64,000 nt of DNA, taken from positions 1 to 64,000 of the forward strand of contig UYFQ01000596.1 of the NCBI GenBank assembly GCA_900617105.1. Reading direction: 5' to 3'. Each line of letters begins with the position of its first letter. Within the stretch, counting starts at the first letter, position 1. Under the pieces are notes generated by a model that worked only from the letters and a program-made list of their open reading frames with translations, made no database searches and was not told where the DNA came from. Below are positions 241-64,000 of the stretch, piece by piece. Source of the stretch: Hydrurus foetidus (lineage: Eukaryota). Position numbers and translations under genes: made by a program.

Positions 241-404
241 GAAGATCTTTGATTTGATATACAGAAAAAAGATATGTAAAACATGTATATGAGATATAGA
301 TGAAACGATTATGTCAGACTTTTACTGACTAAACTCTCCAAAAAAGACCCGTAGGTAAAAAAATAGGAGAGAATCCTCATGGATAAAGTTTCAAATATAT
401 TAAG

Positions 405-5310: not shown

Positions 5311-5412
5311 AACTTTGACGTGATGGTTTAAGTTGGAGGAGTCGAAGACAAAAAGTCGGAAAAGAGAAAAACTTTCTCGGAGGAAACTTCGGTGAAGACC
5401 GAATATCGATAT

Positions 5413-11310: not shown

Positions 11311-11557
11311 GAAGCAGCTTATTGAAAGATTATGGAGCGGATAGTCAAACTTGCATGAGCTAGACCGGGGTTTAGGTTCGCTTTACAACTGAACTAATAT
11401 TGTCACCACATTTCGTATAGATTCACAAGGGAAAAAGCAGAGTGAAAATCCCGGTTTTGATGCCGCTTTTTCCAGTTCCGCTTTTGTAAACAAATTTCGT
11501 ATAGTTGAAAAATCGAATCTCAGGTAAAGGAAGGAACACTATAAATTTGAAACTTAC

Positions 11558-12614: not shown

Positions 12615-12680
12615 CGTCCAAAGAAATTTAGCAAGTTGACGAGATTTCCTATCAGGAATAGAGATGACATGATATCAATT

Positions 12681-18339: not shown

Positions 18340-18356
18340 GGTCCTAACGTCCTAAC

Positions 18357-18384
18357 CGATTATTTTAGATAAGACTCCGCCGCC
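18357..18384. mobile_element. Orphan Zator-family right TIR
   Basis: 27/28 match to the TIR at 47682-47709; flanked by CTG. Confidence 0.8.
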
Positions 18385-18631
18385 CTGTACAGCGGTTTAA
18401 AAAAGTTAGAAGAAATTACATTTTCAGAGAAGATGCCTCAACTTTCACCAGTTTTTGCAGCTCACTGGTAAATGCTGTAGAATCAAGGGGAACACTGACA
18501 CCACCGGTCAACATTCTGCTATCCTCTGAGAGACTGTGTTGTAGTTCGCAATCGTCGTGAGAAGCGCGCGGCGTTGCCTTCGTCTTCAATAAACTACAGC
18601 ACGAGAGGACATATCAAAAATATTCTTTTTG

Positions 18632-35500: not shown

Positions 35501-35823
35501 ATTGGGAACGTCGTAATAGTCGAGACGGTTGGCGATCCTGGTGATATTATGATTGGGAACGTCGTAATAGTCGAGACGGTTGGCGATCCTGGTGATATTA
35601 TGATTGGGAACGTCGTAATAGTCGAGACGGTTGGCGATCCTGGTGCTATTACGGTTGGGGGTGATAAGCTTGGAGACGATGATGGCACAAAGCTGACATC
35701 TGCAGTGGACGCCGTCAGAGAGAAACTTTTGTCCGCTGGATATCTCTGATGTTGCGGCAAAACTGCTGAGGTGAATGCATTCAAAGACCCAATGAGGGTG
35801 ATGACGAGAACACGGCTGACCAT
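32556..35823 (-). CDS. Secreted Pro/Ser/Thr repeat protein with C-terminal Hint (hedgehog-type Hog) domain; 1-bp frameshift near 34570
   Basis: Signal peptide MVSRVLVITLIG; 17-aa and 15-aa repeats; Cys-containing middle exons. Hint motifs CFAGSETV...L.VGDRVL...MTKSH...FVIVNGIISSPFA. Confidence 0.88.
34335..35645 (-). repeat. Coding minisatellites: 45-bp unit (PAITGAPSxAPVMSN) and 51-bp unit (SPGSPTVSTITTFPIII, about 5 copies)
   Basis: Visible tandem units in both DNA and translation. Confidence 0.95.
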
Positions 35824-36101
35824 CTTCAGTGGGTATTTCTCGGCTAGTGCAGAGGCTTCTAATCGACCACGATGTAGGCGTTGTCCTTCTATGGGGTGTG
35901 CCGAAGGCGTTCAACGGCACAATTTGCAACGTTTGTTGTTTCAGTAGATTCGAAGCATCAACCGTTCCTAAGACGATGAGTGGAGAGTCGAGCGAGCACA
36001 TCGTTTCTATTTTTTTCAAAAATTTTAAAAATTATTATGGCGTGCGATACCAGTGCTGCCAACAATGTGGTGGGGTCGGAAATGTGGTGGGTTCTCTCAA
36101 A

Positions 36102-41112: not shown

Positions 41113-42129
41113 GGCAGCGAAATTCCTGATGATAATTCGAGTTAGGAACATATATGAGCTAATCTGATTGAAAGCCATTGAGGAGAAGTCATCATGCAAC
41201 ATGAAAATCAAAATTACAGGGAATCAAACACATTTCCCAGACTCCAGCACCAGAAAAAGTCACCCAATTTTTAGGGAAAAAATATGGCACTTGGATGTTC
41301 ACAGAAAGATGAGCTCACCATCAATTGGAAAATTACCGGCGGCTCCAGATGACCTACGATGTGCTCGCACTTTTTCCTGATTCTCGGGCAACAGAACGAG
41401 TGGCAAGAGGGTCAGCAAGGTTTTGAAAATCATCAACATAAGATGCTGCAAAAACAAAATTCAGTTGTAGTCCAGAGCAACATTTGAGTATCGAACCTGG
41501 TAAAGTTGGCCTTCTGGAGAAGCCCAAGCTACTCAGAAGCTCCACCGCTAGAGAAATGGTGGAGCTCTGGTATCAGCTAGAATTGTGCGCAGAGACGAAT
41601 ATACTGGATGACAGTTGGGTACACTTCCAAACTTTGGGTACTTTTTCACGATTCTCAAATCCGTAACAGGAAGAATTTAAAATACTGACGTTTAGTGCCC
41701 TATCATCATCAATAAATTTTTATATTCAATTCCCTTCGGCCAAATCACTAATCTTTACATGGTCTACAACATGCGCTATTCAGAAGTCAATAATTCGATC
41801 ATTGAAAATAGTTGTGGGTGAAAGACTGAAAAGGTGTTATGGACCAAGAACTTCTAGCTAATCTATCTAAGGATGACTGTCGTTTATGTTGGAAATCTGG
41901 GCGATTTACACGGAATTTCTTCCGAGTTTCCAAACGATCCCTGCACTTCCGACTGCTAGCAACGCTCGCTCAAAAGAGAAGAAGACGTTCTATTCGGTAA
42001 GTTGGATTAAACGACAGTGTCATGCTGTCGATTACATCTAGGTAGCATAACATGAGTGCGAGGGTTGCGGTCAATGTTATCGCTGAATGTACGTACACCC
42101 GTGCATGAAAACAATCATACATCACACAG

Positions 42130-45100
42130 GGCGGCGGAGTATTATCTAAAATAATCGCGTCATGGTCAAAACTCGTTTGGGGTTGACGAAACTTTTTCAT
42201 TTTTACGAGACTTGACTTCTAACTTGAACCAAGCTGCTTTTAGTTGTACTTGACTATGGATGACATTAGAAGTGATAGTTAGAGCTGTAATCATTAACAA
42301 AAAGACAGTTTTTAAGATTCCGCGAGTCAAATCAAATTATTTATATTTTTATTTTTCTTATAGCATATTAAATCTGTACGATTGCGTGATCAATCTTTCC
42401 TATTTCTTATTTTATTATCCTCACGAGACAAAAACGCAATATTAGTAAAGTTGTTACAAGGGAGAGAAGAGAAATCGCCTCTGCCATGCATTTGGATGAA
42501 TTCTGCATCGGCATCACTTACAAAAGCGTTCTTTGTTTTCTTGCTCTTTTTAGCTCTTTTCTTAGATCCTGATACCAAGGCACTTTCGACACCATTAGCC
42601 TCGTCATCCTCATCTTCGTCGGGTCCACTTTCTTCTGTGTCGTCGACAACTTCATTACCACCTACGTTATCATCAAATGCCTCATCTTCATTACTTTCTC
42701 TGTTTTCAATTCCTGTAGCATCATCCTCCTTTTGTTCCTGTAGAACATCTACTTGAGCGATGTTTCCAGTCTTTGATCGTTTCCCTCTGCTAACTTTAGC
42801 AATAATTGTGAATGACTTGTTCTTCCACCCTTTGCTGAGACCTACATCACATAATGGATATTGATTGGTAACTATGGGTTTCTCTGTATCCTCTCCACAA
42901 TGATAGCAAGTTTTCTTGTGATGATCCAATAAGTAAATCTGCAAAAGTAAGACAAAAGGATTAGTATCAGATTAAAGATTCTGAAGTCAACACATCGACA
43001 ATATCTTTAAAAAAATGTTCTTTTACGTACTTTTTCATCAACTGGATGTAAACAACTTAATACAAGATTCCCGCTGAATGTAGCACAATACGGTCGCGAT
43101 ACAGCTTTATCAAAGTCGATCGAAGATACTATCTCAGAGAAGTCAGTCCCGCATGTAAAGTTCAAAGATTGGTTCTCTAGAAACGCGTCGACTTTAATTT
43201 TATCATTTGAACTTATTTTTTTGCCTGCAACTAAGAATACTCCTCTTGGCTTTCCACAGCTTTTACAACGTAGAGTGCTATAAATGTTTTTCACATGACA
43301 AAGTGTATGCGGCTTGATTTCTGCACCTGAAAGATTAAAAAGTGCAAAATGAAAAATGACAAGTGAAAATGACAAGTGAAATATAAAAAATGAAAGATAC
43401 TCACCTTTAGTGTTGACAGGTGGGACAGCCCATTTTGATTTAGCCTCAACTGAAGATAGACTTGGAACGAAAGTGTCACCAGAGTTTTTGTTTCCTTTTT
43501 TAATTCTTTCTTTAGCAGCTTGATATGATATGTAGGGAGAATTAATCCCTTTATCTAGTGGGTCTTTATCTGGGCATGGCATGAAAGATGATAGGACGAA
43601 ACCGGACAGCGGCTGGGTTGGTCTCCTACAACCGAAAGGACATGTTGGATGGACTAATCCTTCAAAATTATCTGGATTCCTTCCTGCTTCAATTTCTTCA
43701 TTAGCTGTCTTTACCCAACAGATTGCCATCACTTGGAATAAGTAGGCAGATTTAAAACAGTGTGTTTCGATGAAATCGTTCATACTATTTTTCTTACTGA
43801 ACATCTCTTTCATCTTTGCCGAAGAGAAAACATCCGACTTCAGATAGGTCTGTTGCGTGAATTCACCAATAGCTGGATCAAGATAGTTGAGAACTTGAAC
43901 AAAATCCTTCATCTCCTCATTATCAGGAATGTAGCCCCTTTCAATTTCTCTATCAGTCCAAGTTAAGTTTAGAAAGCGTTTAGTCATTTCCTCACATGCA
44001 CCGCCTACAGATATGTCAGCAGCTTTTAGGAAGTCCACATTTTCTTCCAAACGTTGTCGCAACTGTGACATGTTTCCCGAAGATCTCCATTTTTGCTCGA
44101 GTAGTTCGGAAGAAGCCATTAAAGAATCTCTATCGCTGCCGACATTCGAGTCAGGATCTGGTACCATTTTTAATCTTGAGAAACACATGGAGTATAGACC
44201 TAAGTTGAGAACTGACATTACTCTTTCGACCTCGTTGGTCCAGCTATTTTGTGGACAAGATCGACAAACAACCAAAATATCGAAAGTGACTATACGCCAC
44301 ATAATGATAAGCGCAATTTGAACCGACGTAAAGTTGAGATTGTGCTCTGGCCCACCATCTGTCAACAGTATTCCAATATACTGTTCATCTTTTCTTTCTC
44401 GTATTAAAAGCTTTGATAATTCAGTGTGTGCACGTACAACCGTGCTAGGTTGCATGATGCTTGATTTTACTGCAACGTACACCTGGCCTTGATAAAATGA
44501 GTCCGAGGATTCTTCCGGTATGTCACTGATGAGAGTTACTGTTGGAACAGCATTGTCCCTGCTTGAACCCGCATCGTGATCACCACCCGCAAATAGAGTC
44601 ATGTGACCTACTCCATCTATAGGGTGTAATGTCGGCCGACTTCGCTCTGTAGCTAATGCCTGGCGATCGGGCTCGCCGATGGGTACCTGTAGTATTCATT
44701 TGTAAATTTGATACATCAACGCAAAGTATCGTAACGATGATTGAAAAAACAAACAACTACTTACCTTATTTTTATCGTCGACTTGTACAAATATCGCATA
44801 ATCTTTGTTCTCAACTGCAAACTCTTTAAGATACATTTTTAATGTTTGTGTGTAATCGAAGTCTTGGTGTCTTACATGATTCGTTCGACTGGAAGAGTAT
44901 AATGTAAACGGTAACTCACTAAAATACCTATTTGCTTTAGAAATGTATTCATTTCGTGGACAGAATTGTTTTCTTGTGTAATCTAATGACGGTATATTGT
45001 CATACACTTTCTGGTGATCTACTTCATCTGTATCAGTATTTGTGAACCTCACTGTTATTATCTTACTCACTAATCGATGCAATTCACTAATTGTTGACAC

Positions 45101-47709
45101 ATGTGAAACTGCTTCTTGGCTTCCATGTCTTTTTGCTAATGCCCCCTCGACTTTCCTTCTGCAGAGATCATTGCACAATTCAAAGAAAATGCTGTATTTT
45201 CCTGGTTTTTCGATCACGTTCAATATATCGACAATAACTGAACTATTAATATCATTATTTAACATTATTTCATTTGCTAATTCAGAACTTTTTTTAGATT
45301 TGGTTATTCCTCTTATAAGACTTTCTAATTTCTTCGTCATTGCTTTTATTCCTTTTGATTCCTTAAATATATCATCGATATTAGTCTTCAAATGCACCAA
45401 TGCATTTGATTTTATATCCTCATTTATTAATTCAAGGACTTCATTGTATTTTTTTAGTACTTCGGGACAATGGACATCGACACCAATTGGTAATGCTATA
45501 AGATAACGAATTAAACGGTGATCAGACTCATTCTGTCGTTTGACAAGAATAAAAGCTCTTCCGAAGTGTGCTCCTTGTTTGCACTTTAATATATTCTGAT
45601 AGTATTCAAATCTGTGTTGCCGTACCTAAATAAGGTATGAAAAACATTTTATAATGTTGTTTTTAAGCATGAGAATATGTATTTAATCTATCAGATTTAC
45701 CTTGTTTTCATAAAGAGATAATGAAAGAGTTCCCCATTCTGGAAGCGCAATAAATGCCGCTGATGCATCCTTATAGTTTTTATTTATAACTCCTCGTGTC
45801 TCATAGTTAATCATTTCCAAGTGAAGAGAATTCGCAAACGAGAAATTATTGACTTGGATTAGTGCGGCTATTTCTAGTTGATTAGCAACGCTCCTCCTAT
45901 TGCTTTCACTACGTTGCGTATTTTTCTTTTTTTTGTTTATTAAGAAATTTTTCAGCACCAAAATCCTGTTGTTAATCGACGGCCACGGTGGCGATTTACA
46001 ATAATTAAACAAATCACTACCGAGAATTGGTGCTATAGCTTTCAAAAGCTTTTCACATCCTAATGCAATTGAAAAGACATTAAAGTAGAGTTACTTTTTA
46101 TTAAGGCCAGAATTAGAGTACGAAATCGTTCTACAACATACCTGGATTGTCAATATGATTCTCGTCGTCACGATCAGAATAGGGTCTATTCGCATCATAA
46201 AAGAAAAGACTTAAAAATGGGCACGCACTGAATGATGCATCAGCTGCTACGATTTTGTTCCATCTCTTATTCAAGTTTTTCAGGAAGATGCACAGGTTCG
46301 AGATAAAAATATAGATTTGGTGGTCCTTGTTGTTGATGACAGCGGACGCAAAACGAATTTCATGATGCAAGAAGTATCGCTGTACAATAGCCGTCCACTG
46401 GATCTCAACAAAAGGTTCGTGATTAAACATTCTTGATTTCCATAGCTGGCACCACTCAGCACGCAATAGCGGCAGGTGGTCGCCGCTTTCGTCATCTTGG
46501 AGTTGTAACCTCGCTTCTTTCCGCTCGGAGATTGATTTGAAAAGCGGAAATTTTGCGACACTCACAGGGGTCGCGGCGACAGGATCATAAATGTGCTTGG
46601 AGTGCAACTTGAAAGTTACATTGAAGAGAGGGTCAAACTCGTTGATGACCTCATCCCATAGTGCAGTTGGATTTATGACAGTCACCGATATTGTGCTACC
46701 AGAGTCCCGATCTTTGCCGCTAAAAATCGTTCGATGTAATCCCCGGTCACTACTGATACATTGATCGCTGAACACGGTCTGACAAGCCTCAAGAAATATG
46801 GCGTTTATAGTTTGTCCACTCTCAAAATTATCCTCCACCCGGTAAAATGATAGTGATGTCGCTGCTGCAGGAGACAACGGCAGCGCAGTATCGGGATCAA
46901 CAAGAGCTAACTTCAAAGAGACCATTTTGACGGGGGAAAAGACTTCGGTAAACGATTCGGGAAGATGACGATGCTGGACAGTTGCTGTAAATGTTGAACC
47001 ATGAAGTTTCTATGTCTAGTGTGCGACGCGCAATGGAATGTGACGATCGATAATGAACATCGAGGGAGAATCGAGAGTCAGAGATTGGGATCGTGGGTTT
47101 GATTCCGTATCAGGAATTTTTGATTAATTGTATGGTACAAGATCCCTGACTTGGAATTAGGTCCGAGGTCCTCACACACATTACATGTTATACTATCTCT
47201 CAAACGACGGAGACAAAAATAAAAATTTCTGTCTCACCAAAGTAGCCAAATTTGTTCTGCAATTTGCCCTAAAGGGTTAGAAGCCAAGCTATCCGTATCC
47301 AAACATGTTTTGGAAGATATTTTTGGAGCTAGAACTCGGCTCAGTTGAAGACAAATGCTTTATAAAAAATCGTTTCAGTCTTCGATATTCAGTAACGCTC
47401 CGATGCCAGCTACTGTGTACCACACATACCGCTTATATAATCGATAAGAGCAAAATCTGTCTTAATCTTGTACCACATTTGATTTATATCACAAACTGCC
47501 GATTATAAAATTGGCCAGTCAAAAAGGAAAAGCCTAACCTGACGTAAGTAGCGCATTTCAGACTAGCCTGGAGCCAGTAAGCATGCATTGGGTAGGCTGG
47601 GAGGGCTTAAATTAACAATATCCCTAAGTTTCGCGAATCTCAAAAAGTTTCGTGGTTTGGCCGTGAGGGGGGGGGGGTACGCGATTATTTTAGATAATAC
47701 TCCGCCGCC
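42130..47709 (-). mobile_element. Zator-like DNA transposon, 5580 bp
   Basis: Perfect 31-bp TIR GGCGGCGGAGTATTATCTAAAATAATCGCGT. The 3-bp CAG TSD is confirmed against the empty site in LTR 61358-61636. Confidence 0.92.
42390..46925 (-). CDS. Zator-like transposase, multi-exon, with C-terminal Cys clusters
   Basis: VDDKNK|VPIGE across intron 44687-44764; DHD; TDGGPEH; SWTNEVERVMS; CKSCGKPR; CYHCG. Confidence 0.75.
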
Positions 47710-48344
47710 CAGGGTACAAGATCCTAGTCTAATCCGGACAGAACTGGTCTGAAACTTGAAACTCTCTATCGAGTTACAGTAGCAGTTCCTCTTCGAATAA
47801 GTCTGCCTTTCGGATCCTGGATCCAGTCAGAGCACCTGGTTGATAGCAGTGGTTCGTTCAGAACACACTTTGCTTTCAGCTAGTCGACCAAGTCGTTCCA
47901 ACAGCTCACTCAAGTGTAGGTATAATGGCTCACAGCCATATAGTCTCTTTTAATTAGAAGTGCTCATCATGTCAAAACAAAGCAGTTCATGGCTAGCTAT
48001 ACTAGCTATAGTTGACTGTTCACAGTCATCATCAGTTGCAACTTCCAGTACAGTTCGAGTGATGGTCTTGAGTCTGAAAACGCTACCCTCGCTCCTCCGC
48101 TTGGGCTTAGATGATATTACCCCAAAGGGATTTCCCCCAAGGGGATCGTCCCCGTAGGGATAGCTATGCTATATCCAACACACCCCTAATGTCATAAGCA
48201 TTCAGGCGGTACATTTGTATTTCCTCGTGAAAATGTAACACAAATCATGTTTGTATCTATCGTAAGCTATAGTGATCAGACAAGTTTTGTTGCTAATAAA
48301 AATTTGAAAAAATAGCTCAACTGTAAGTCAATAATGTGAAGTAC

Positions 48345-51300
48345 TTAATTTCCTAAAATTTTCTTCACCATCTTGGAAAAAACTGTTCCTTGCAATGGTT
48401 TTGTGAAGTAATCAGACGTCATATCCTCGGTTGGAACGTAGACAATGTTTACAGCACCGATGCGGATGTAGTCTGATATCCAGAATTTTCGCACCTCAAT
48501 GAACCGGGTGGTTTCTGCGGTAGACCGACCTTTTGTAAGCAGCGTGATGCATGATTGATTGTCTTGTTCCAGCCTCACTGGAATCTTGCCGTGTCCTTGG
48601 TAAGCAATAAATCCTGCAAGCCAGAGCGGAATGTTCATGCCGTCAGATACTGCAATGATCTCAGACTCTGTACTTGACTTGGAATTTAGCTTCTGGACCT
48701 TGGAACTCGAAATGAAATTCCCCACCCCTAATGTGACACACATTCCTGAGGTTGATTTCATCAAATCACGGTTGGCAAATGCAGCATCAATGGATACTGT
48801 TACTGTCGGGGGCAAAGTACACCCCAGTCGTAATGGCTTGTCTCTGGTAGCCCTCAGATAGCATATGAGCCTATCGAGTTTCTTGTCGTCTTCAATTGTT
48901 GGTGCCTTTACACGTTTGCAAAGTTCACCCAACACTAATACAATGTCTGGGCGAGTTCGGTTCCCCAGGTAGAGTGCTGTAGCAACGTCGGTATGGAAGG
49001 TTTTAGCATCTTTCTCACTTAGGAATTCGCAGTCCAAGGTCCGCTCAAATAGGTGTGGGGCACCCGGTGATGATGGGTTCCCGATGAGCTTCATACCTCG
49101 TTCAGCATGGCTCTTTTCCCTTGATGAGATCAGATCTTGAATCATTCCAATCTGCGTGACGTTCACAAATCCTGGCTCATTGTAATCCCACATGCATCCT
49201 AGGTACGGTAGAACTCGCTCTTGAGTGGTACGAAATTGACCGTACGTTCTCAGCAAAATTTGCTCCATGTCAAGAACCGCTTTCTTGTCCACACACGTCA
49301 TCTTTAAGTCATCTACGTAGACTAGGATCGTGAATTGGTTGCCTTTGACGTCCTTATTAAAGACGCAAATATCGCGCGGGTTAGCCGTGAAACCATTGGA
49401 CCGTAAAGTTCCGGCTATTTCGTTATACCAGAGTTTGGCGGACTCGATACACCCGTAAAGTGCTTTGTCTAGTCTCACTACTAGGCCTCCATTGTGTCTT
49501 CTGTAACGTAAGAAAGAGATGTCTTGTTTGATGATTGCGTCGGCCACATTCTTATCAATATACATATGGAGTATTTTATCCGGTTTTTCCATCGGCATAT
49601 CAGCGTTGAGGTATGCGGACCCAACGTCCCCGACCATGACGAAACGGTTTTCTACAGCAGCAATCTGTGCAACTGTAAAGATGGCAGCTATGCTCGCTGT
49701 TGGTGATTCAACTTCATCTGGTGCATAGTCCTCTCTAACTTGAGCACGCCCGTCCACACAGAACCGCGCCTTGACCTTGTCGATTTGGCGATCACCATCA
49801 GAGTTTACCGTTGGAAGGTATTTCTCCACAACATTCATGTTTGAACGCAGTATCTTCTGCTTCTGTGTAGGCGACAGTTGTTCCATGTGCACCCCCGAAA
49901 ATGTCCCCTTTGCAAGTAGTGATTTGACCTCTGACTCAATTGCTGCAGTAGCCTTGTCCGGAAAAAGTTTCAGTGCCCGAGTAACTGTCATAAATGACCA
50001 CTCACCCCTAATTCCTTCTTTCTGCGTTGGAATAGGTAGTTTGTCGGCTACTAAGTTGAGTCGGTCTGGTGGCTTTCTGGTTCTCGTTGATTTCTGGCGC
50101 ATTTCAACAGGTGCACTGGGTACGTACGTACGCACAGTGGTAGTAGGTGGTGCCGCTGGTTGCTCCTCCGGTACTGCTTCAAATGTAGTTTCTGGTCCGG
50201 ATACTTCGTCAGAAGCTGGGATGGTATGGTTTGTGTCGACCGCTGATTCCATTTCACCCCGAATCTCAATTTGGTCTTGAGTAATTTGAGGTTCCATCAC
50301 GGTATCAAGCGTGTCGGTCTCATCCGGGAACACCGGTAAAATTGGAGGTGTGTGTCGGAACTGGATAGTAGGCTCCTCATCTGAAGGTGTATCCATTATG
50401 ACCACATCATCAACTGCATCTCCAGTGATGTCTCTATCATGGAATGTGAATGTTGGTTCTTTTGATGTGTGTATTTTATTCTTCGATGCCCACCCGTTTA
50501 CAGTGGTAATGACGAGCGGAGGTATCGGTAACACCACGTAGTGGTTGGCTGATATGACACTCCTTGTGTCAATGCGCATGAAGGTATGAGTACCTGTTCC
50601 ATTCATCTTTGGCTCTAGGTATAGGCATCCAATGGTTCGTGGATCCATGCTGTTGCTAAGCACCCTGCCGGTGACTTGGCAGTATGAGCCGAATGGAGGT
50701 CCGATATCTTTTTTCGTGTCAGCCTTTCTGCCGAAGAATGCTTCGAAAGGAGAAATCCTATCTGTTCTTGTTGATGAGGGAAAGAGCAAAAGCTTCTTCG
50801 CCGAGCTCATCACAAGGTGAGGCATGAGTATATCCGGTAGCAAGTATGGTAGACTGAAGATGGTACACCGGATGGTCTCCTTTAAGTGCCTGATCATTCT
50901 TTCAATAACATGATCGTGTTGCCCTGGACCAACGGCAATCACCTCTACTCCCATGGCATTCATGTCATTGACTAGTGCCGCAATGCCACGTTCATTATCA
51001 CTTGTAAATTTCACGATGGAAATGCGTCGGGACCCGATGGTACCGAACATGCGCCTGATACTCTGCCTGAGTACCGGTGTCGTGAGGTTTTCAGTGCATG
51101 CTACCAAAACGATTCCCAATGGGTGAGTAATCGATACTAAGTAGGGCTGTCGATTTACAAACATGATATCGCAATGCATGTGTTGGTCGTCGAAGTGACG
51201 GGCCGTCGTAGGTAGTTGAGGTGGCGTCATAGGCCTCAGCCTGGTAGTGCGTCCTTTGAGTGCAGCAGCGTTTGCTCCCCAAATTTCTGTGGCACGCGTG

Positions 51301-53252
51301 ACATCTTCAGGTAAGATGTCGCAGTTTAGAAATGTCCCAGCTCTCAACGCGGAAATGAATTTCTGATCTGGTGGGAATCCCAAACTCGCTTGCAAACGGC
51401 GTGCATCGATGCTTCTCTGAACTTCGCGTTTCGAGAATTTGGCTTCGTTGGCTTCCGTTGTGGCAAGTTTTGTAGAGTATAATATGTTCATAGATGATGT
51501 TTCTATCACCACGGAGTGAGCATATGCAGTTCTGCGCTCTGCGGCGTCAGAATATCTCGGCTCTGGAGGCGTTGCCAAATCGTTGACATATAGCCCTCCA
51601 CGATGTTGAAATTTGTAGGTATTCTGATCAGTATGAAGCAAAAATGCATCTTGATCTATTGTAGAACCCTGGCGAAACTCCCAGTTGTGTCCTTGCAGCA
51701 GACAATCCGATGCCGAGATGATGGAGAGTCCAGCACGTGGGTCGAAGTGAACGATGCCAATGTCGCGAAGGTTTGCTGTTTTAGTTACAGTGAGAGAACC
51801 ATGCAAGCCATTGAATACAGTTGGAGTGCATGTCACAATGTTACTCAGCACATCTGCACATGTGATGATGGTGCCTGTAGCTCCTGTGTCGAAGATGGCC
51901 TCCGATGTACTTCGTTGATTGATGTTACGGTTGGCGGAAAAATCGGTCCGAGGACCGAGGGTTGCGAGTTTCACCGGTGAGGTGGTGTAGCACACACTAC
52001 AGTTCCTTTCGCCATATTGATTCTTGTCATCCTCTTGATCCCACATTTGGCCAAAAGCAGTGTAGACATCATCTGAAGCACTGGAGTCAACTCCGTCAGT
52101 TTGTCTCCTGGCCAAATATGATATTTGTGGGGCTGAAGGGGGCTCTCCAGCGGCCTTCTTTCTGCACTCACTAGCACGATGCCCAGCCTTTCCACAGTGG
52201 TAACACGTTCCACTGAATTTACCCTCCTTCACATCTTTAGCAAACGTGACTTTAGGTTCCTTGATTTTCGCTGGGTTAATTTTCTTGGCTTTTTCTTTGA
52301 CGGGTGATTTCTCTCCCTTTGGGGACCCACCCGGTTTGACGGGGTTCTTCGCTGCAAGTGCCGTATGGGGGTCACTATCGCTGATTGCAATGCGCTACCC
52401 TTTGTCCCACGATGGAATCTAGTTGCTCCATTAATTGCCTCCACCAGAGTCTTCGGATAGATGTCAATTGCGGTGCACTCCAGGGAATTACTGAGGTAGT
52501 TTTTGTAGTCGTGGTAGACCTGCACGGTACTACTCAGACCATCAATGAACCTCATAGATTGTTGTTTTGCATCTGGAATTTGTGCTGCTGGAACTCCTGT
52601 TGCAGCGAGTCGATCAAAAGCTTCACCGCACGACGTCCGTACGTTACGATGTCTTCGCCCGTACTCATGGTGAGTGTATACCAATCCCGTAGGGCCTGGG
52701 ACCGCTCTAATTCCTGATTCCCATCACATCTTGATGTGACTACTGACTTGATTACATCAAGTAGTCCAAGTGGGTCGTCAAATTTGACAGCGATGAAGTT
52801 TGCCTCCACTACCAGAATTGCATTGAGTGATGGTGAACACATCGATCGAATCAGTCGATAAGCTGATCTACGGTCCTCCATTTGCTTTCTCCTCATCTTT
52901 GTCACGACCGCTCTGTCGTTATTCAGGTCTGCCATTATTAACTTGGCTCGAAATCCTTTTGGATCAGTGATTTCGTCCAACGCCTCCAATGCAGTGAAGT
53001 CTGGTTCCGAAAATAGGTACACCTCGTAGGCCGGTTTTAGGGTCAGCATCATAGGGTCGGGACAGATCGACTCGAGATCCTGAAAGTTGACTCTCATGTA
53101 CTCTTTCAGTCTCTGAATGTTATCGTCCCATTCTTTCCACCCGTTGTGAGTGATCTCAGGGAGACTCTCTGGCCTCACACCATCTCCAGGCGTGGTTTTT
53201 CGGCCTTCTCAGATTTGGATTGGGCAGCGCCCTTCTCGCCTTGCTTGCTCAT
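48345..53252 (-). CDS. Copia A Gag-Pol (gag in several frames; 1295-aa pol ORF intact)
   Basis: CYHCGKAGHRASEC, FDTGA, HCDIM...SDNE...ER, KARFC, KALYGC, YVDD, IDAA, SSTESE, DNQS, DYFTKPL. Confidence 0.95.
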
Positions 53253-53267
53253 TCTGAGCAGCTCACG

Positions 53268-53278
53268 ACTTCTAATTA
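53268..53278 (-). promoter_or_regulatory. Non-tRNA PBS of Copia A (TAATTAGAAGT), complementary to LTR 53440-53450
   Basis: 11/11 reverse complement, abutting the 5' LTR. Confidence 0.85.
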
Positions 53279-53894
53279 TCTTGGAATAAGTCTGCCTTTT
53301 GGATCCTGGATCCAGTCAGAGCACCTGGTTGATAGCAGTGGTTCGTTCAGAACACACTTTGCTTTCAGCTAGTCGACCAAGTCGTTCCAACAGCTCACTC
53401 AAGTGTAGGTATAATGGCTCACAGCCATATAGTCTCTTTTAATTAGAAGTGCTCATCATGTCAAAACAAAGCAGTTCATGGCTAGCTATACTAGCTATAG
53501 TTGACTGTTCACAGTCATCATCAGTTGCAACTTCCAGTACAGTTCGAGTGATGGTCTTGAGTCTGAAAACGCTACCCTCGCTCCTCCGCTTGGGCTTAGA
53601 TGATATTACCCCAAAGGGATTTCCCCCAAGGGGATCGTCCCCGTAGGGATAGCTATGCTATATCCAACAGTTCCCGTTGGCAATTACCGTGTCGAAATTT
53701 CCGTGATTCTGGTTGTTGTCAAAATCCTAATCTCACTTCAAAATGGCAAAAGAGTAGGCACTCGACGGTCGACGGTATATGCTCCAGATTGGAGATGATC
53801 TCCAGCTCCAATTCCAGTTCAATTTCATGCTGTGCACTTAGGAGTAGAGAGTTACAAGAAAATCTAATGAAATTGATTTGCGCTTGAAGTACTG

Positions 53895-54845
53895 ATGCAC
53901 AACCGTGTTGCTATCAGCGAAGATAAAATCCTTGATGCTTATCCCGTGTCTAGGGTCACACCTGCAGCTCTTCATCATGATATGTTCGCACTCAATTTTA
54001 GAAATAAAAATCCCATAATTCTCGACGGTGCAGCGCTGCCATGGTTCGGAATCTGTGGCTGTACCGACGATCCGGCAGAAAAAGTGATTGAGAACCTCGA
54101 GGAATGTGAAGCTGAAATGTTACTAGCTCTGGATGGAAAGAATTTCCTGCAGCGTTCACTGTGCAGCAGCAGAGAAGTAAATCTCAAAGAGGAAACGAGG
54201 AAAATCTTTTCGGAACATGGCATCTTTCAATCCCGCGAAAATCTATCTGTGGAATCGGTACCACAGCGGAAGTATATTCGCATTTACTTTGACTCGCACA
54301 CGAAGCTGCTTCACAGAATTGATCTATCTTACTTAAAATCATTGGCCACAAATGCCTCTCCTACCACAACCTCGATTGTCACGGAGCCCAGGGAAAACAA
54401 GTCTGATTGTATTGTGCCATTTAAACTGAGGAATATCGGTTTGTGGATGAGCAGTGAAGGATGCGTGACACCTCTCCATTTCGATAAATGTCACGGTTTT
54501 CTCGCTCAGATAATTGGCATCAAAACCTTTTTGTTGGCATCAAGTGCAGAGTCTGACTTGTTGCGATACTGGAGGGAAGAAAGCGATGGTTACTACGAGA
54601 ACGGAACCACTAGCTCTGTCAATCTTGGGCTCTGGCTCGAAGGGAATATCAATGAGAGGGTAAAACACCCGCTTATTGAAGATGTGGCGTGGTTTATTGC
54701 AAAACTCTGTCCTGGTGACATACTCTACACACCTCCAGGCTGGTGGCACTATGTGATCAGTGAGACAGCATCTGCATCTATACTAATCCCTTTTGATCCG
54801 CAGCCATCTACTGAGACTCTGCCGAGGAACGTCCTGCTTTCCTGA
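53895..54845 (+). CDS. JmjC / cupin-like 2-oxoglutarate-Fe(II) oxygenase
   Basis: TPLHFD (HxD), AQIIG.K, L.PGDILYTPPGWWHYV. Confidence 0.92.
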   Translation: MHNRVAISEDKILDAYPVSRVTPAALHHDMFALNFRNKNPIILDGAALPWFGICGCTDDPAEKVIENLEECEAEMLLALDGKNFLQRSLCSSREVNLKEETRKIFSEHGIFQSRENLSVESVPQRKYIRIYFDSHTKLLHRIDLSYLKSLATNASPTTTSIVTEPRENKSDCIVPFKLRNIGLWMSSEGCVTPLHFDKCHGFLAQIIGIKTFLLASSAESDLLRYWREESDGYYENGTTSSVNLGLWLEGNINERVKHPLIEDVAWFIAKLCPGDILYTPPGWWHYVISETASASILIPFDPQPSTETLPRNVLLS

Positions 54846-55800
54846 AGATGATGCGCATCGCATTCATCAGCGATACTTGAGAGGAGGCAAATGCATGGCA
54901 GTTCAACTATTTTTCAACTATTTTTCAGTTCTTATGATGAAATTTTCTTTTAAGAAATTGCCGCATTTGCGAGAAACGTAAGCGCAAGGAAAATCGTGGC
55001 ATGCTTCGGGATTTGTCCTGAGACAGTTATTTGTCATTTTAATTTTTTGTGTTCGTATTGAAGGGGTATTTACCAATGATGGTGCTCGACAGACTAGATC
55101 TTCTAAAAATGATATCAGCTGTTGGTCCGAGGCATCGACGTTGCTGGACGGCGCACGTTGAGAGGATGTCAGATTACGCCCATTGTCGTGATTGAAGTGC
55201 CATGAGTGGAAATTTAAAGTCTCATTTGTGATGGAGAAAAATAATGGAGGATACTGCTGAACGTGATATGGAAAGTTTTATAAATCCTGCTGGGAAGACA
55301 GCAGTTCTTCTAATCTTACATGTCACACCTTGAAAGTCATCTGCCTTATCAACTGTTATCTATTAATCTTTGATGCAATCCACTACACGGATTAGACGGC
55401 AGCCGCGATTGGAAGAACCCGCGGATTCTGAAAGCAGGAATCCGAATTGCAGGGGAATCCGAAATAAAGCTGTTAATCTCGAGCTTGATCGGATCTGCAG
55501 CATTGTTCTGCAGACACAGTTTTCAGTTTTCAGTATAAAGTAATACCGTATAGTTATCCGTATCGTTTTCTATTATCAGAGAGACCAGTACTTACGCCTA
55601 AAATACATGAAAAAGTTCGAAAAATCGCATGAAAAAGCACTTTCAGAACATAAATAGTGCTTTGTTATCTGTCAATCCAATTGCAGTTATCCCATAAAGG
55701 GAAAAGCTCCATTACGACTAATCAAATCTCGGGCTCCATTTCTGGTTTCCTCAACGTGAAGCTGAAGGTTTCGAGACAAGATAGCATCTGTAGACACAGG

Positions 55801-57291
55801 ATGGAAAACATCGGTCATCATGAGACTAAAAAAATTATCCGTTCAAGTAGCGAGAAGGAGATGCTTGTGCAACCTTCTTCTGGTAACCGTTTTTCCGAAA
55901 TGAAGTTGCTGGGCTCCGGTACGTTTGGTGAGGTATGGAAAGGTTTCGATGGTAAACTCAAATGTTGGGTGGCTATTAAGACATTTCAGGAGGTGTCCTC
56001 GGACAATTTAGGAATCAATATGATGGTTATCCGAGAGATTTCGCTCCTGAGGAAATTGAACCATCCCAATATAATGAGGATGTTAGATGTGCTCATCGGG
56101 GGAAAAGTTGACAGCAAAGGCCTCTTAATAGTGATGGTGAGGGGAAATGCCTTGGAATGATTGTATGGAACTTTCTAATCTTAATGGCTAACGGCAGGAA
56201 CTAGCAGAGATGGACCTTCACGACTATCAGCGCAAATTTGGAAAGTTTCTCTGCCTAACCAAAGTAGAATTCATAATCAGGCAAGTTCTGGAAGGATGCT
56301 CCTACCTGCACAGTAACCATGTTATGCACAGGGACTTGAAGCCAGACAACATCCTGATATGTAGTGCTACCGGCATGACAAGAGTCGCTGATTTCGGATA
56401 CGCTCGCACCTTCTCGAACATCAACTCTGCCGCTGCATGCTCATCCCGGTACAGCTGGCCTATCCAGGTAACTTTCTCCTTGATATGAGAATCATCCTGA
56501 TCACTGGTCGCCATCACTACCCTAAAATCATCCTTCAGGCTCCATCTTACAAGGCCCCTGAGGTCTTGCTGGGGTGCGATTGTTACACATCAGCGGTAGA
56601 CGTATGGTCTATCGGGTTAGTCCGTGTTCCTGTCCACCGTCACATTTAGCTTCATCAATTCATCTAATCTCTTCGGAACCATTGTCATCAGGTGTATGTT
56701 TTGTGAGTTGCTATCTGGGGGACGGAAGCTTTTTGGTGCTGCGGGAGTTGCTCCTTGGGTGGAGCCAGAAAGACGCAGCAATCGGAAAAGGGGGCGGCGT
56801 GAAGACTCTGTCGTGGTGATGAGTCAGCCAAATCAGATTTACAGACTCTCCAGTGGTGTGCAGATTGATTCCGTGTCGTCCAGTTGTGAAAGGAATGGAA
56901 CGCTTGTCTCATCACTCACAGCGATATTCAAGGTGCGTTGGGGGCATATTTATTCATTCTGACTGTGCAGTTCATTGACACAAGACAGAAAACATTTTTG
57001 TGACAGATATTCGGCCCACTGAGTGACAGCCACGCGCCTGCTCTGCGTCACCTGTCCTTGTTTAGGAAGTTTGCTGCTGCAAAGAGTGATGTATGTAGTG
57101 GACAAGAGAAGGACGTTGTCCGTGTCGCTAGGGACATTTTTTATGATTTGGTTGAACCGCATATGCGCGATGCCGCTGCGATAAGGCTACTCCTTCAATT
57201 ACTCTGTGTTGATCCGGTCAGGCGCGTCACCTGTTCCTCGGCATTAAACAATTGTTTTTTTAACTCTGCAACTTGGTCTGCGGCCGAGTGA
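55801..57291 (+). CDS. Divergent CDK-like Ser/Thr kinase, 5 exons
   Basis: GSGTFG, VAIK, IREISLL, HRDLKPDN, DFG, YKAPE, DVWSIG. Introns at about 56137-56197, 56468-56538, 56616-56691 and 56933-57006. Confidence 0.92.
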
Positions 57292-57626
57292 AGATGGTCA
57301 GTAAAAGCTTCGGTTTCGTTGTGTTAAGCAAAACATCTTTAGATTAGAAATTGTTGTTTAACATTGGGCATTTGAATGCTGTTGTGCTTTTTGTGAAGCA
57401 GTCTGTGGTAGCAGATTAAAAATGAACATGGAATTTCAGATGATTTCGGGCTGATGGTGTGCTATTGGGCGCAGCAAAAGATGTGAAGGCGCACTAGCTG
57501 TGCCGTGCCGATCGTCTAAATGGTACTTACTATTTGCAGGTGCCTTCGCGTAGCGAATATAATGTGCTTCACAGGAGAATTGGTAACATTTTCGTACAAT
57601 TTTTTCACTTTAGCCGGATAAACGTG

Positions 57627-58370
57627 TCACTGGGATAATTTTGGCTTGGGTCTCCAGGCCAGTGCCCAGCCGTGACTCTTCGGTGGCGATGTCTGAGGTG
57701 TTGTGGGTGTCTTTAAGCTTAGTGAGCTGTCGATGACGCCGGTTGTGGAGTTCTTCGTGATGTACGAATGTGGCGGTAAACTTTTCCTCCCGAAGTCACT
57801 GTCTTCCCCATTTGTTGATTGTTCCACGTCGAAGCCATATTTTCCCGTCGTGTCGTTAAGATACTCTTCGTCCCCGCTCTCCTGAAAAGATACTCCTGAG
57901 TTGTCCCCGCTGGTAAACGATTTGTCTCCGAGACTGCTCGTGTACTCAGCTAGCCACTGTTTGCGTTCATGGTCGTGTGGTTGATACAGTTCGAAGATGG
58001 CCTCTTTCGCTGTTATTCCACGTGATGTCAGGTGCGCACGAAGTTCGTTAACTGCATCGTGCTTGAACCGCACGTACTCCTCCGCTTTCCAAAACAAATC
58101 ATTCATAAGTGGTTTCATTTCGGTACGTGACAGCACGAGACAAATGTGAACTGTCGTCGAGAATTTCAAGTTCAATTTCACTTTCTTTTCAGCTGGGTCC
58201 GAGTTACGGTTCGTAGATGAGAGAGCGGAACGCAGTCCCGGCGCTGGTGTCATTTTCGATGTTCTCGTTGGCGAGGAGTCGGGGGATGAGTCACCGTCAT
58301 CTGCTGAAAGAAAGGAGTCCTCTGTGCTGTAGCTGTCTTCACTGGCGTCATCGAGATCGTAAGTTTTCAT
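57627..58370 (-). CDS. Hypothetical protein (247 aa)
   Basis: Clean ORF with low-complexity ends and a central LKFSTTVHICLV...LFW...Y..FK block. Confidence 0.7.
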   Translation of the reverse strand: MKTYDLDDASEDSYSTEDSFLSADDGDSSPDSSPTRTSKMTPAPGLRSALSSTNRNSDPAEKKVKLNLKFSTTVHICLVLSRTEMKPLMNDLFWKAEEYVRFKHDAVNELRAHLTSRGITAKEAIFELYQPHDHERKQWLAEYTSSLGDKSFTSGDNSGVSFQESGDEEYLNDTTGKYGFDVEQSTNGEDSDFGRKSLPPHSYITKNSTTGVIDSSLSLKTPTTPQTSPPKSHGWALAWRPKPKLSQ

Positions 58371-59072
58371 TTTGTGCGTAGAACGGTTGTGATCGACAGT
58401 TACAGGTGCGCAGCCTGTGATGATAGTGAATAGTGGAGACTTCTATGATGCCATCAGCGAATGGATACGTCCCAATTTCAAAATGCTGTGCGTGAAGGGA
58501 GTCTGCTTTTAGCACCACGTCATCGCTCCGGGAGAAGATCGCAGATTTCTGATGATTTTTAGACGTGCGTATGTGCGTATGCTGAAAACTTCAGAAACGT
58601 ACCGTACGCTTTTACATACCTATTTTAATTTATTTTTTTTGAAAAAGCACAGATCGATCATAGATCGAGATCCGATGGATTGATCCCATAGCAAGTTCAG
58701 TAGAACAGTAGAACATGAAACTCAATCCAGAGCCGAGCAGCACGATGAAGGGTATGTTGGAGTATCCGGAGAAAATACACTGCTGTAGTTGTATAGTATA
58801 TGTATGGATCCTGACGGTCAGCGGTATGCGTCCTGGGGATGTGGACCGTGGACCGTTAGTTGTTTGGGCTCGTGGAGCCGTCCATTCATCTATCTTCAAC
58901 ATGGATAGAACATGTGCAATTGCCTTGATATGTAAAGCTTCGTTGCCGTCTTGATTGATGCCGGTGCACAAGTTTAATTATCAAGTAATTACACAATACA
59001 AGTCTATTTTACGAGCCTTGGGTCACCGGTCACAAGAGTCACTAAGCATCCGGAAGTCGAGGATTCCCAACA

Positions 59073-59082
59073 TAATTAAACT
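59073..59082 (+). promoter_or_regulatory. Non-tRNA PBS of Copia B (TAATTAAACT), complementary to LTR 58971-58980
   Basis: 10/10 reverse complement, abutting the 5' LTR. Confidence 0.8.
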
Positions 59083-59098: not shown

Positions 59099-61357
59099 AT
59101 GCCGCCGAAGAAACAAGAAGAACCAAAATCAGGTGCAGAGCAGTGCATGCTGAGAATCGGACGTTACAACAACGTGGTGCAATGGAGGGAAGACATGCAG
59201 AACGAGGCATGCGGCCTGTACGGGATGACCGGCACGTTCTTCACCACCAACAAAAGCTACGTCCACCCGTATCCTCGCGAGGAGGATTACAATCCCACCT
59301 TTCAAACAGTGGAAGTCGATATTCCGACGGCGGGTACCGAAAATGAAGACGAGGAAGACGAGTCCGTAGACCTCGAAAATGTCATGATCGGGCCACAGCT
59401 CCCACCAGCGCCTCCTGCCGTGTACTCCGAGGCACTCATCGACAAGCTGCGAGCCAATGCGTTCGAAGGACGCCGCAAGGCAGTCGAAACGCAAAAAGTC
59501 GATGAGCAAAAGCTCTTTCCACTGATGTGGTCGAGAATGTCGACCGGGTCCAAATCCAAGGTGCGCGAGGAGCCAGGCTTCGAAGCGGCTCGCCTCAGAC
59601 TGGACAGTGTAAAACTGTGGGAGTACATTCGAAGAAGTCACCTAACTCACATTTACGGTGAAGACGATTCGATGCGAGCGATGAATGTGCACGAGCAGAC
59701 CATTAGGTACAACTACCTCAGACAGGGTGAGCGTGAGGTAATCGGCGATTTTAAGACACGCTTCGATAACCAGGTATTGGCCAACAGAGGTGTTGGTATG
59801 ACCGAAGTTGAAGAACCGATTAGGGCAATCGACTTCCTCAGTAAGTTAGATCCGAAAAGGTATACCATGTTGACTCTAATGCGTAACAACGCCGTACAAA
59901 ACCTGCCGAATAGTTTCCCTTCTACCTTAGCCGGAGCCTACAGGGTAGCGTCAGCTCGGAGGGTAGCGTCCTGGACCAGCTCGGGCGGAGGAGTCCCCCT
60001 CGGCGCCGAGCAACATTCCGCATTCCTGACGGATTCTTTGATAGGTACAAAGGAAAAAGTCGCGGGAAAAGGATCGAAGGGGAAGACAGCTGGAACGAAA
60101 AAGAAGTCATCGTCAGTGATATGCTTCGTATGCGGAAAGACAGGACATTTCGCAAGAGACTGTGAACAGCGCAAAGATGGAGAGCATGCGCTGCTCACTA
60201 ATGTTGAAGAGGATGTCGAAGAAGATGACGAGAGCATCGAGGCAGATTTTGTCACGACAGAAGAAGTCGCACTGTTCACACAAAGTCATGTGCTGCTGGA
60301 CAATCAGGCCTCGGTGAACATCTTTTGTAACCCGGCGCTGCTCACAGACATTAGAAGATCGCAGCATGCAATCCTCCTCAATGGAGTCCAGTCAGGTGCG
60401 AAGGGTGTCCGAGTCAATCAGGAAGGAAACTTCGGCGACATCGGACCAGTCTACTTCAGTCGCGGAGCGACCGCCAATATACTATCATTCGCGGCGATGG
60501 CAGACAGCGGAGCAGACATAAGCTACAACCATGAGAGTGGGTGCTTCACCCTACGACCAGCCGGCAGCAGGACAACGTACAGCTTCAGTAGACAGACCCT
60601 TCCCGGATCGACAGGGAGATTCTACGTATGGGACGCGAGCAGCGTGGCGAGCGTTTGACCTCCGGAAGAGGTGCTTGTGACGACTGTCCAAGACAACATG
60701 GCACGCTTCACGAAGCGCGAGATTGCATCGGTAGCAGCAGCCAGAGAGCTGCTAGCTCGAATGGGTTACCCTCCAGTCGAGATGGCAATTGCAATGATCA
60801 GGGGAGGGAACAACTTCAGTGTCTCCGAGGGAGATTTCAGAAACGCGCATACGATCTGGGGTAAATGTCTCGCCAGCCTCAGAGGCAAGACCCACAAGAA
60901 ATCGTCACCAGTGGCTGACATTTCACTGACACCTGCACCAGCGCAGCAGCAGCAAGTGTTGAGTGTAGACATAATGTATCTGGAGACAACAGCGATACTT
61001 ATCGCCGTTTCTACCCCGTTGGATATGACCCTCGCTGTGAGCCTTATCCGACTCGACACTGAGAAGACCTCGCGAGCTGCTGCAATAGTGAAACCTGAAT
61101 TGAACGAAATGATATCTGTTCTCAAATCCAGGAACTTCTTGGTGCAAGTGATCATGTCTGACGGAGAAGGTGCTATCGGGAAAATGAGGGTTGATTTGCT
61201 GGCACTGGGGATAGAGGTAGATGTCAGCGCAGCTGGCGGACACGTAGCCAGAATCGAACGACGAATTCAGATGATGAAGGAGCGAGCACGTGCTCACCTC
61301 AACGGTAGAATCCCATTCACTCCAACAGAACTCTGCCTAACATATCTAGCTCTATAC
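59099..61357 (+). pseudogene. Copia B Gag-PR-integrase, interrupted
   Basis: CFVCGKTGHFARDC, LLDNQAS, VDIMY...SDGE...IERRI; frame break near 60650. Confidence 0.9.
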
Positions 61358-64000
61358 TGTTGGAAATCTGGGCGATTTACACGGAATTTCTTCCGAGTTC
61401 CCAAACGATCCCTGCACTTCCGACTGCTAGCAACGCTTGCTCAAAAGAGAAGAAGACGTTCTATTCGGTAAGTTGGATTAAACGACAGTGACATGCTGTC
61501 GATTACATCTAGCTAGCATAACATGAGTGCGAGGGTTGCGGTCAATGCTATCGCTGAATGTACGTACACCCGTGCATGAAAACAATCATACATCACGCAG
61601 GGTACCGGATCCTAGTCTAATCCGGATATCACAACACACCCCCATGATGGTTATTGTTTGAATAAGTGAATATGTTAATTAGCATATGCTTATATAGTAT
61701 ACTTATTGGTTATTGTTCATAATGTTTCACACAACACTCAGATAGGGAACTTAGTGTTAGGGTATGGTAAACAGTAAATTTTCTTAAAAATATTTTTCAC
61801 GGAATTTTTAATATTGACAAGTTGCGTCGTGATATGGTGTAAAATAAAACATGGGTGGTTGGATTAGTAAATGGGTATTACTCGAGAAAAACTATTTCTA
61901 AACCGTCAAAAAAGCCTCAGCTGGTGACCGGTCTCGAGTTCGATCCAACCGATGTTGGTGCCCTTAAATCCGCTAAAACGTCGACATTCGATGTCGCAAA
62001 AGCGGTGCATCGATGTCCCTCGCGGTCCTATCAAACAAATGTTGATTTAAAGCGAAATCAGATTTTTATTTTTATTTTGTAATTTATCTGGAAAAAGCGC
62101 TATAAGTGGGTAAGTCAAAATCAATAAATAACTCCCCTGAATTTCTTTATACATTGAGCACTTGGTCGCGTAGCTCTTGGAATAGCTTCCCCTGCAGTGG
62201 CTTGGTCAGCAAATCTGCAATCATTTCTTTAGTACTCTTGTAGGTTACAATAATATGGTCTGATTTAATTCGGTCATGCAGGAAGAAAAACTTGATGTCT
62301 ATGTGTCTAGTTCTTTCACTGTTGGACCTACCGTTCTTAACTAACTGAATTGTGGATAGGTTATCTTGGTAAATTAAAGCTGGACCTACCTCATACTCTT
62401 GATGGATAAGGAAATTCCTAGTCCATAAAACCTGATTACCTGCTTCAGTCATAGCTACTAGTTCTGCCTCTGTGCTAGACGTAGTATTTAATTTCTGTGT
62501 GGAACTCTTACCATATATTGCTCCCTTACCTAGTGTTATAATACAGCCAGTGTGACTCTTCTTATCTGCATGTACAGCGTATGATGCATCTATATAGGCT
62601 ATAACCTTAACCGGAGTATCTACCTCTAGGGTCAGCGGCATAGCTCTGGTCTCTCTGATATACCGTATAGTATGCGCTAACTTATTCCAGTCGTCGGTTC
62701 TAGGTTCTAAGACTCTTTTAGTTAGATATGCTATACATGTCAGTATGTCTGGTCTGGTTCTCTTACTTAAATATAACAACTTAGCTGTTAGTGAGTGGAA
62801 TCTCTCACGTTCTTTATCTTTCAATAAAGGACTGTTAAGATCGATCTTGAATAGATTATCGTCGGCAGGTGTTCTAGACACCCCCACAATCTCTATGCAA
62901 TCGTCTAACAAGTCTTTTATGAAACCTTCCATGGATATGACAACTCTGCCTAACTGCTCAAAGTTAAAAGTCATACCTATATAATTCAACACTCTGCCTC
63001 TACTCTTAGTCAAGCCTGGGTATAGTTTTTCTATCTCTGAAATTATACTATCTATACGCTTCTCATCCCTACTGCTGATCATCATATCGTCAACATGGAT
63101 AACTAAAGTAGTCTGAGTGGAATCTAGCTCAGTCCTATTGAATACACATATGTCTGATGGATTTACCTTATAGCCTAACTGTGTTAAGTCTGATGATATT
63201 TTATCGTACCATAACTTAGCTGACTCTACACATCCATATAATGCTTTCTTAAGCTTAACTACTACTGTTCCTTTCTCATTTACATACTTCTGATAAGACT
63301 TGTCAATGCTAACTAATATGTTAGTCAAATATTTATTCAGTCTCATCAGCACTGCATGGTCACCGTCTAGTGGCATATCACTGTTGAGGAATGCACCAGG
63401 AAAATCGATCGTAGCGACCGCTCGATTTTCACTAGCAGCAATTGCAGCAACAATAAATACGCTAGTGGTGCTAACAGTTGGTGATGAACCGTTATCATAT
63501 ATATTTCTATCTTGTAAGTGACCTCCTGCTACAAGTCTAGATTTTAGCTTATCAAATTTACCATCTGCTGTATACTTATCTTTTAAAAACATACTGCTGG
63601 TTATGATACTTTTCCTCTGATTGTAACTAAGACTGTTGAGGTGAACTGCCTCCCACACATTCTTATCACACATCTGTTGTAACTCTTTTTAATGGAATCT
63701 ACGGCTATCTCGCCTAATTTCTGTACTCCTTCTGTTACGGTCATGTTCATCATGTACTTACACATAACTGAATCTTTGTAGCTAGGTATACTTAAACCTA
63801 CTAATCTCTTATTCCATCTACCTGGCTGATGGTTTCTAGCACTACGTCTGGGTTGTTTATCTAGAATTTCCTCTGACTTGCTATTTTCTGTGGTGGGGGT
63901 ATCTACCTCATCATCACTGTCTACACCAAATATATCATTCATTAATGCATCGGGGTCAGTTGGTGTATCGTCATACACTACATCCTCTCCTTCATTAACG
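61358..64000 (-). mobile_element. Ty1/Copia family C, 3' part, nested in Copia B
   Basis: 3' LTR 61358-61636, PPT GGGGGTG at 61637-61643, RT/RNase H upstream. Confidence 0.93.
62147..64000 (-). CDS. Copia C reverse transcriptase-RNase H (partial; frame break near 63685)
   Basis: KSRLVAGG, KALYGC, HVDD, YIDASY, SSTEAE, QDN, ADLLTKPL. Confidence 0.95.

Follow-up and report, generated by a model that had tools for sequence, protein, structure and literature searches.

Copia retrotransposons of a likely golden alga carry a signature of probably self-primed reverse transcription

Introduction

In the Gypsy retrotransposon Tf1, the transcript's initial 11 bases pair with the primer binding site (PBS), and cleavage by RNase H falls between bases 11 and 12 (PMC7175516). 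Self-priming of this kind is therefore not categorically new. Proof of it exists so far for Gypsy elements of fission yeast alone, and within Copia it has been predicted for one plant lineage, TAR. The prediction covers Gypsy Tcn1 and plant Copia TAR (89% of 203 elements; Neumann 2019, PMC6317226), and the same paper cites an earlier self-priming proposal for Houba and Osr-1. The fungal Copia element GalEa has no transfer RNA (tRNA) PBS and carries a Conserved Hairpin Site, and no complement was found in its long terminal repeat (LTR) (Donnart 2017, PMC5445492). Here we analyze a 64-kb window (positions 1 to 64,000 of contig UYFQ01000596.1) in which three Copia families, A, B, and C, each carry a PBS that is the exact reverse complement of a site inside the adjoining LTR. 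The best reading, at a probability of about 0.85, is Tf1-like self-priming in these families and their lineage. What is new is the signature in Copia elements of a likely chrysophyte host.

As in Tf1 and Tf2 of Schizosaccharomyces pombe and in the Tf1/sushi and Tcn1 chromoviruses, the PBS is complementary to the element's own LTR, and the 11-nt length of Tf1 recurs in A and C. However, the reverse transcriptase (RT; RVT_2) and the domain order are those of Copia and not of Gypsy, so these elements are not Tf1/sushi members. They also differ from Tf1 in that the primer length of relatives ranges from about 10 to 16 nt, that a conserved accessory helix was not seen, and that self-priming is here a prediction. 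The plant Ty1/copia TAR elements (Houba, Osr-1, and Fourf) share with our elements predicted self-priming and a 5-bp target duplication, and A, B, and C all have the complement that was used to recognize self-priming in TAR, at least 10 bp long and 0-5 bp away from the LTR end (PMC6317226). The host here is a protist and not a land plant, and the comparison with TAR concerns these features. At its LTR end, GalEa has a 9-bp motif that is AT-rich and the start of which resembles the PBS of A and B. The partner of that motif lies 12-41 bp downstream, whereas the partner here sits at an initiator-like motif within the LTR (PMC5445492).

The initial annotation of this window had pointed to a similar suggestion for the diatom CoDi elements (described in Maumus 2009 and, as branch 1, in Llorens 2009). 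No such suggestion was found in the main text of either paper, and neither main text gives a priming mode (PMC2806351, PMC2774666). The sequence clusters nearest to the A RT-RNase H are eukaryotic, and their commonest phylum is Bacillariophyta, known for only 3-4 members of each cluster; the clusters are mostly diatom where the origin is known. A search of the open literature, outside which lay subscription papers and GyDB and Repbase entries, found no paper on self-priming in algal Copia.

Results

Each PBS pairs with a site in its own LTR

All six motifs reported by the initial annotation lie where it had placed them. In family A, on the minus strand, the 11-nt PBS (53268..53278) abuts the LTR and is the exact reverse complement of 53440..53450, the predicted first 11 nt of the transcript, in which A is the first base and C precedes it. 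In family B, on the plus strand, the 10-nt PBS (59073..59082) likewise abuts the LTR and is complementary to a predicted self-primer at 58971..58980, preceded by CA. The 11-nt PBS of family C (41876..41886, minus strand), again directly at the LTR, corresponds to a predicted self-primer at 42008..42018 that is preceded by C. The paired site lies 172 nt (A), 102 nt (B), and 132 nt (C) from the LTR end.

Dinucleotide-shuffled LTRs matched the observed pairing length in 3 (A), 5 (B), and 1 (C) of 20,000 trials, and the flanks of two 3' LTRs, taken as a control, paired over 3 nt only. Each PBS paired over just 3-6 nt with the LTRs of the other families. The letters differ between families while the pairing is kept. 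None of the three begins with the TGG of a tRNA-type PBS, as had also been noted.

Two statements of the initial annotation hold in part. The families had been called unrelated; their LTRs indeed do not align, but the RT-RNase H regions of A and C match at 36% and the integrases of A and B at 28%. Judged by these comparisons, A, B, and C are distinct yet related families. The shared pattern of a primer that starts with A, ends with TTA, and is 10-11 nt long is true of A, B, and C but does not extend to their relatives, which pair over 7-16 nt at 69-224 nt from the LTR end. In these relatives the pairing frequently begins one base past CA.

The signature is widespread among relatives

We searched with the A RT-RNase H and obtained 289 proteins among 7992 scored candidates. 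A 67-sequence alignment was then used to collect 77 metagenome loci, drawn from the best 80 of at least 572 confirmed ones, together with 19 genome-bin loci, 96 in total. No relatives were found in the viral collection, and single-protein locus scans were likewise without a match. Loci L078-L096 are eukaryotic Copia contigs inside bacterial GTDB genome bins, where they were presumably misbinned.

A blind junction scan covered 58 loci, with a null that counts all candidate LTR ends and a range widened past 160 nt before gag; in one subgroup of relatives the LTR ends lie 300-480 nt upstream of gag. The pairing was reached in at most 1 of 100 shuffles at 32 of these loci. We also assembled a curated set in which junctions were set manually and LTR ends were picked after the scans had been seen, and 57 of the 96 loci were usable. 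The 39 omitted loci had no 5' LTR-PBS junction on the contig, had an LTR end that was not found (L021, L043, L044, L055, L077, and L083), or were near-duplicates (L010, L078, and L081); L070, a 3' LTR followed by flank, was dropped.

Pairing of at least 10 nt was present at 48 of the 57 curated loci, 9 nt at five, 7 nt at one, and none at three, so that complementarity is found at most testable loci of related families and not missing from most. The 48 include two loci with one mismatch, one with two G-U pairs, and one duplicate family. L016 pairs over 15 nt with two G-U pairs.

Further comparisons used a set of 55 rows (A, B, C, and 52 loci), from which the negatives, L016, and one duplicate were excluded. 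Mean pairing was 12.6 nt with the own LTR and 4.5 nt with other LTRs. Cross pairs reached 10 nt in 6 of 2970 combinations, and 53 of the 55 PBS 10-mers were distinct. In 54 of the 55 curated cases the LTR end was followed immediately by the 3' arm, and TGG did not occur within the first 8 bases at any of 61 junctions. The signature is present across the whole RT tree (FastTree, 59 rows, midpoint-rooted, unnamed relatives only, with L095 left out as too short), whose members are about 30-55% identical to A or C. Family A sits in this tree on a long branch, and its placement is without support. Independent public assemblies carry the same signature.

Both arms change together

In 12 alignable relatives from one subgroup, a 14-bp helix between LTR and PBS was paired in 168 of 168 cells. 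Both bases had changed in 48 cells, at 11 of the 14 pairs, and there were no one-sided changes and no G-U pairs. None of 500 shuffles scored as high, and slid registers were 36-54% paired. RNAalifold returned the PBS-LTR helix and no other from this alignment. Of the relatives with a junction, L095 stands closest to A; it differs from A at one pair and still pairs there. When transcripts were folded from the predicted start, 44 of 50 gave the helix a mean pair probability of 0.8 or more.

In genomic contigs of family B, listed variants occurred at 22 of 92 positions between the arms and at 0 of 20 arm positions, and variation started again at 59083, the first base past the PBS. A stretch of 46 bases upstream of the self-primer site was invariant as well. 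In two contigs the first PBS base was changed, and the partner base was not seen in those contigs.

The pairing boundary coincides with an initiator-like motif

Because a primer cannot pair past the first base of its own RNA, a pairing boundary at an initiator-like CA is a prediction of self-priming. The 5' boundary, defined by complementarity alone, fell on CA in 47 of 55 cases (background 11%), with A as the first paired base in 19 and CA just before it in 28. TCA stood at the boundary in 35 of 55 (background 4%). This fits the proposed diatom initiator-like motif TCAH(+1)W, which was found in 68% of 80-base 5' flanks (Kadono 2015, PMC4686930). The predicted transcription start sites are 53450(-), 58970-58971(+), 42018(-), and 61489(-). 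Because the PBS points to an exact base as the predicted transcript start, testing the model would cost little.

RNA reads came from two stranded runs of one sample, with the strand inferred from a neighboring JmjC gene. On a diverged B-type LTR copy with no PBS behind it, sense depth dropped to 0-1.6 at 58974-58980, and 7 sense molecules had their ends at 58982, which is 11 nt inward of the predicted start, a weak signal from one sample. Short-read libraries usually lose some 5' bases. From a diverged B-type LTR elsewhere in the genome (aligned to 58982-59072), sense reads extended into non-element sequence (30 and 46 reads), and a solo or 3' B-type LTR appears to drive a downstream transcript.

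Discussion

A proposed mechanism and its alternatives

Families A, B, and C, together with most of their testable environmental relatives, have a PBS that adjoins the left repeat and is complementary to it, and they are likely primed by the front end of their own RNA and not by a host tRNA. The complementarity lies at the LTR end, is retained while its letters change, and ends at an initiator-like CA; cleavage and priming are what we infer from it. Transcription would start at the LTR site, so that the primer would be the first 10-16 nt of the RNA (10-11 in A, B, and C), and the 5' end of the transcript would fold onto the PBS. A cut after the last paired base would free the primer; going by Tf1, the RNase H of the element is the predicted enzyme. 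RT would then extend the freed 3' end into U5, and minus-strand synthesis would begin without a tRNA. Plus-strand synthesis would copy the primer into a new PBS; tRNA primers are copied at this step in retroviruses. With such copying, the two arms would be expected to change together, almost never via G-U. The initial proposal of a self-priming Copia lineage gains support from the lineage-wide pairing with changing letters, the lack of TGG, the lack of enrichment for a half-tRNA pattern, and the initiator-like boundary.

Several observations weigh against self-priming. Three loci (L003, L059, and L062) show no pairing, with LTR ends that are uncertain, and the six loci with 7-9 nt are individually not significant (8-43 of 200 shuffles). 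Curated LTR ends were chosen after the scans, and five of them are non-canonical or unusual. The sequences behind the covariation counts are related, and the counts are not independent events. The PBS-primer duplex of B is weak (-6.5 kcal/mol), and a conserved second (accessory) helix, which Tf1 needs, was seen neither by RNAalifold nor in the folds. In the RNA reads, the A and C LTRs had no start cluster, 3-10 reads covered U3 of the A LTR upstream of the predicted start, none ran across a PBS into gag, and transcript starts were not resolved to the base. Lastly, the PBS of A and C fit the pattern of an anticodon arm at an offset of 1-2, with TCT and GTC as the anticodons.

This last point would favor a host half-tRNA, or another small RNA, as the primer, with the LTR match as a by-product; for A and C, a half-tRNA is the chief competitor of self-priming. 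Half-tRNA priming is known in the Copia lineages Osser, Bryco, and Bianca (PMC6317226). However, the pattern fits 14 of the 55 PBS where 10.6 +/- 2.8 are expected, 147 of 1000 shuffles are as high, and the offsets are inconsistent. L095 loses the pattern and keeps self-pairing, B does not fit it either, and the 53 distinct PBS 10-mers mean that a few tRNAs could not serve them all. A half-tRNA primer across the set is not supported by this test, which compared the PBS with the pattern alone, and we consider the explanation quite improbable. Marginally better placed, though still improbable, is a helix that is real but structural, acting in packaging, dimerization, translation, or RNA protection while a different primer is used. 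Covariation indicates pairing or templated copying and not priming as such, and the lack of a Tf1-type accessory helix also suits a structural role. Against this, in 54 of 55 cases the 3' arm starts right at the LTR end; this is the place required for primer binding, and the arm occupies it without room for a second site. G-U pairs are usually tolerated in structural helices, whereas the 168 cells contain neither G-U nor a one-sided change, and the pairing ends at the initiator-like CA.

The AT-rich PBS, the 7-9 nt cases that fall within chance, and the junctions curated after the scans could also point to chance matches in AT-rich DNA, or to an artefact of assembly or selection. The shuffle tests, the cross-pairing and slid-register controls, and the independent public assemblies refute chance for the lineage and leave it for no more than the nine loci with short or absent pairing; as a general account it deserves hardly any weight. 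We retain self-priming as the preferred reading. A bolder version, to which we would give slightly less than even odds, is that a deep and diverse stramenopile Copia branch of diatoms and golden algae self-primes throughout, independently of Tf1 and TAR, with the PBS rewritten at each replication from the first bases of the transcript. Such rewriting would lock the promoter start to the priming site and free both from any tRNA, and tRNA-free priming would then be a major, possibly ancestral, Copia mode and not an exception.

A wide lineage of protist Copia elements in which covariation is strong would demonstrate that self-priming is within the reach of Copia enzymes too. The finding also bears on the suggestion that the precursor of LTR elements was self-priming (Benachenhou 2013, PMC3601003). 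There may be a practical consequence for annotation. The pipeline of the Cyclotella genome paper keeps only LTR elements with a detected PBS (PMC7466962), and pipelines with this requirement may drop such families if their PBS search relies on tRNA matches.

Structure of the three elements

The family A element is a full-length Copia retrotransposon; it lies on the minus strand at 47790-53669 and has a frameshifted gag. Its Copia hallmarks are paired 391-nt LTRs, a polypurine tract (PPT), and a 5-bp target duplication (GGAAC at 53670-53674 and 47785-47789), while B and C are partial copies. The 5' LTR (53279..53669) has 99.5% identity to the 3' LTR (47790..48180), with 2 differences, and a G-rich PPT stands immediately before the latter. 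Gag and pol (48345..53252, minus strand) include a CCHC knuckle, protease-like and integrase-like regions, RT (RVT_2), and RNase H, and the integrase-like region lies upstream of RT-RNase H as in Copia. This annotation is based on Pfam zf-CCHC and RVT_2 and on open reading frames (ORFs), with protease and integrase assigned from motifs and position only. The LTR termini of A are TG...GA and not TG...CA. GA in place of CA occurs at the end of both LTR copies of A (53279 and 47790), in the relative L095 (650-655), and in L005; L025 ends with CT, and L050 and L075 end with TA. Non-canonical integrase attachment ends seem to be tolerated in the lineage of A and its relatives.

Family B comprises a 5' LTR, gag, protease, and a partial integrase on the plus strand. 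The 3' LTR of a C element truncates it at 61357, and no RT of B remains in the window. Its 5' LTR (58755..59072, 318 nt, TG...CA) is a single copy in the window, with ends taken from the terminal inverted repeat. The coding region (59099..61357) has a zf-CCHC match, and its partial integrase is the part that was compared with the integrase region of A.

Family C is present twice, both times on the minus strand. The PBS-bearing copy is a relic whose 5' LTR is split by a 5.6-kb insertion and has lost about its first 10 nt. The main part of this LTR (41887..42129) is 97.6% identical to the C 3' LTR, and on the far side of the insertion, at about 47710-47738, its 5' remnant is found. The second copy (61358-63688) has a 3' LTR (61358..61636) with a copy of the paired site at 61479-61489, a G-rich PPT before this LTR, and a Copia-type RT-RNase H ORF (62147..63688; RVT_2, E 2e-22). 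C is called Copia because its second copy carries RT-RNase H, PPT, and 3' LTR. The 1.2 kb behind the C PBS had no match among stored proteins, and a noisy loose-end consensus (16 contigs, agreement 0.48) suggests that the bases behind the relic LTR are family sequence.

The insertion in the C LTR (42130-47709) has 30-32 nt terminal inverted repeats beginning with GG and an apparent 3-bp target duplication. Its ORFs of 562, 309, 292, and 193 aa had no Pfam match, and another copy of its repeat end lies near 18357-18388.

Among the relatives, an extra frame of about 80-100 codons lies between PBS and gag in L009, L015, L023, L024, L026, L028, L029, L031, L055, L057, and L061. By eye, this frame resembles a KOW/SH3-like barrel. 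In L022, a tRNA-like sequence was seen by eye immediately downstream of the pol stop.

Genomic setting

The window is eukaryotic DNA with many transposons, and no tRNA genes were found within its 64 kb. It contains a flippase gene; the best 94 of 120 listed relatives of its product include two eukaryote-named entries, both chrysophytes (Ochromonas danica, 54%, and Chrysophyte H2, 52%). One of these 94 is labelled as an archaeon, and the remaining named taxa are at 42% or below. The host is likely a chrysophyte (golden alga), as judged from this one gene.

A Gypsy chromovirus with RT, RNase H, integrase, and chromodomain occupies 1-5695 on the minus strand, and its LTR parts are identical. Its 3' LTR extends past the window edge and thereby leaves the LTR end undefined; with this limit, neither a TGG nor a self-pairing PBS was evident, with no self-pairing above 8 nt. 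Units of about 1661 bp form a tandem array at 12672-18340, are 99% identical, and adjoin a MULE-like transposase fragment (11423-12244). At 32774-35910, a Hint-domain ORF lies beside long tandem coding repeats of 45 nt and 51 nt.

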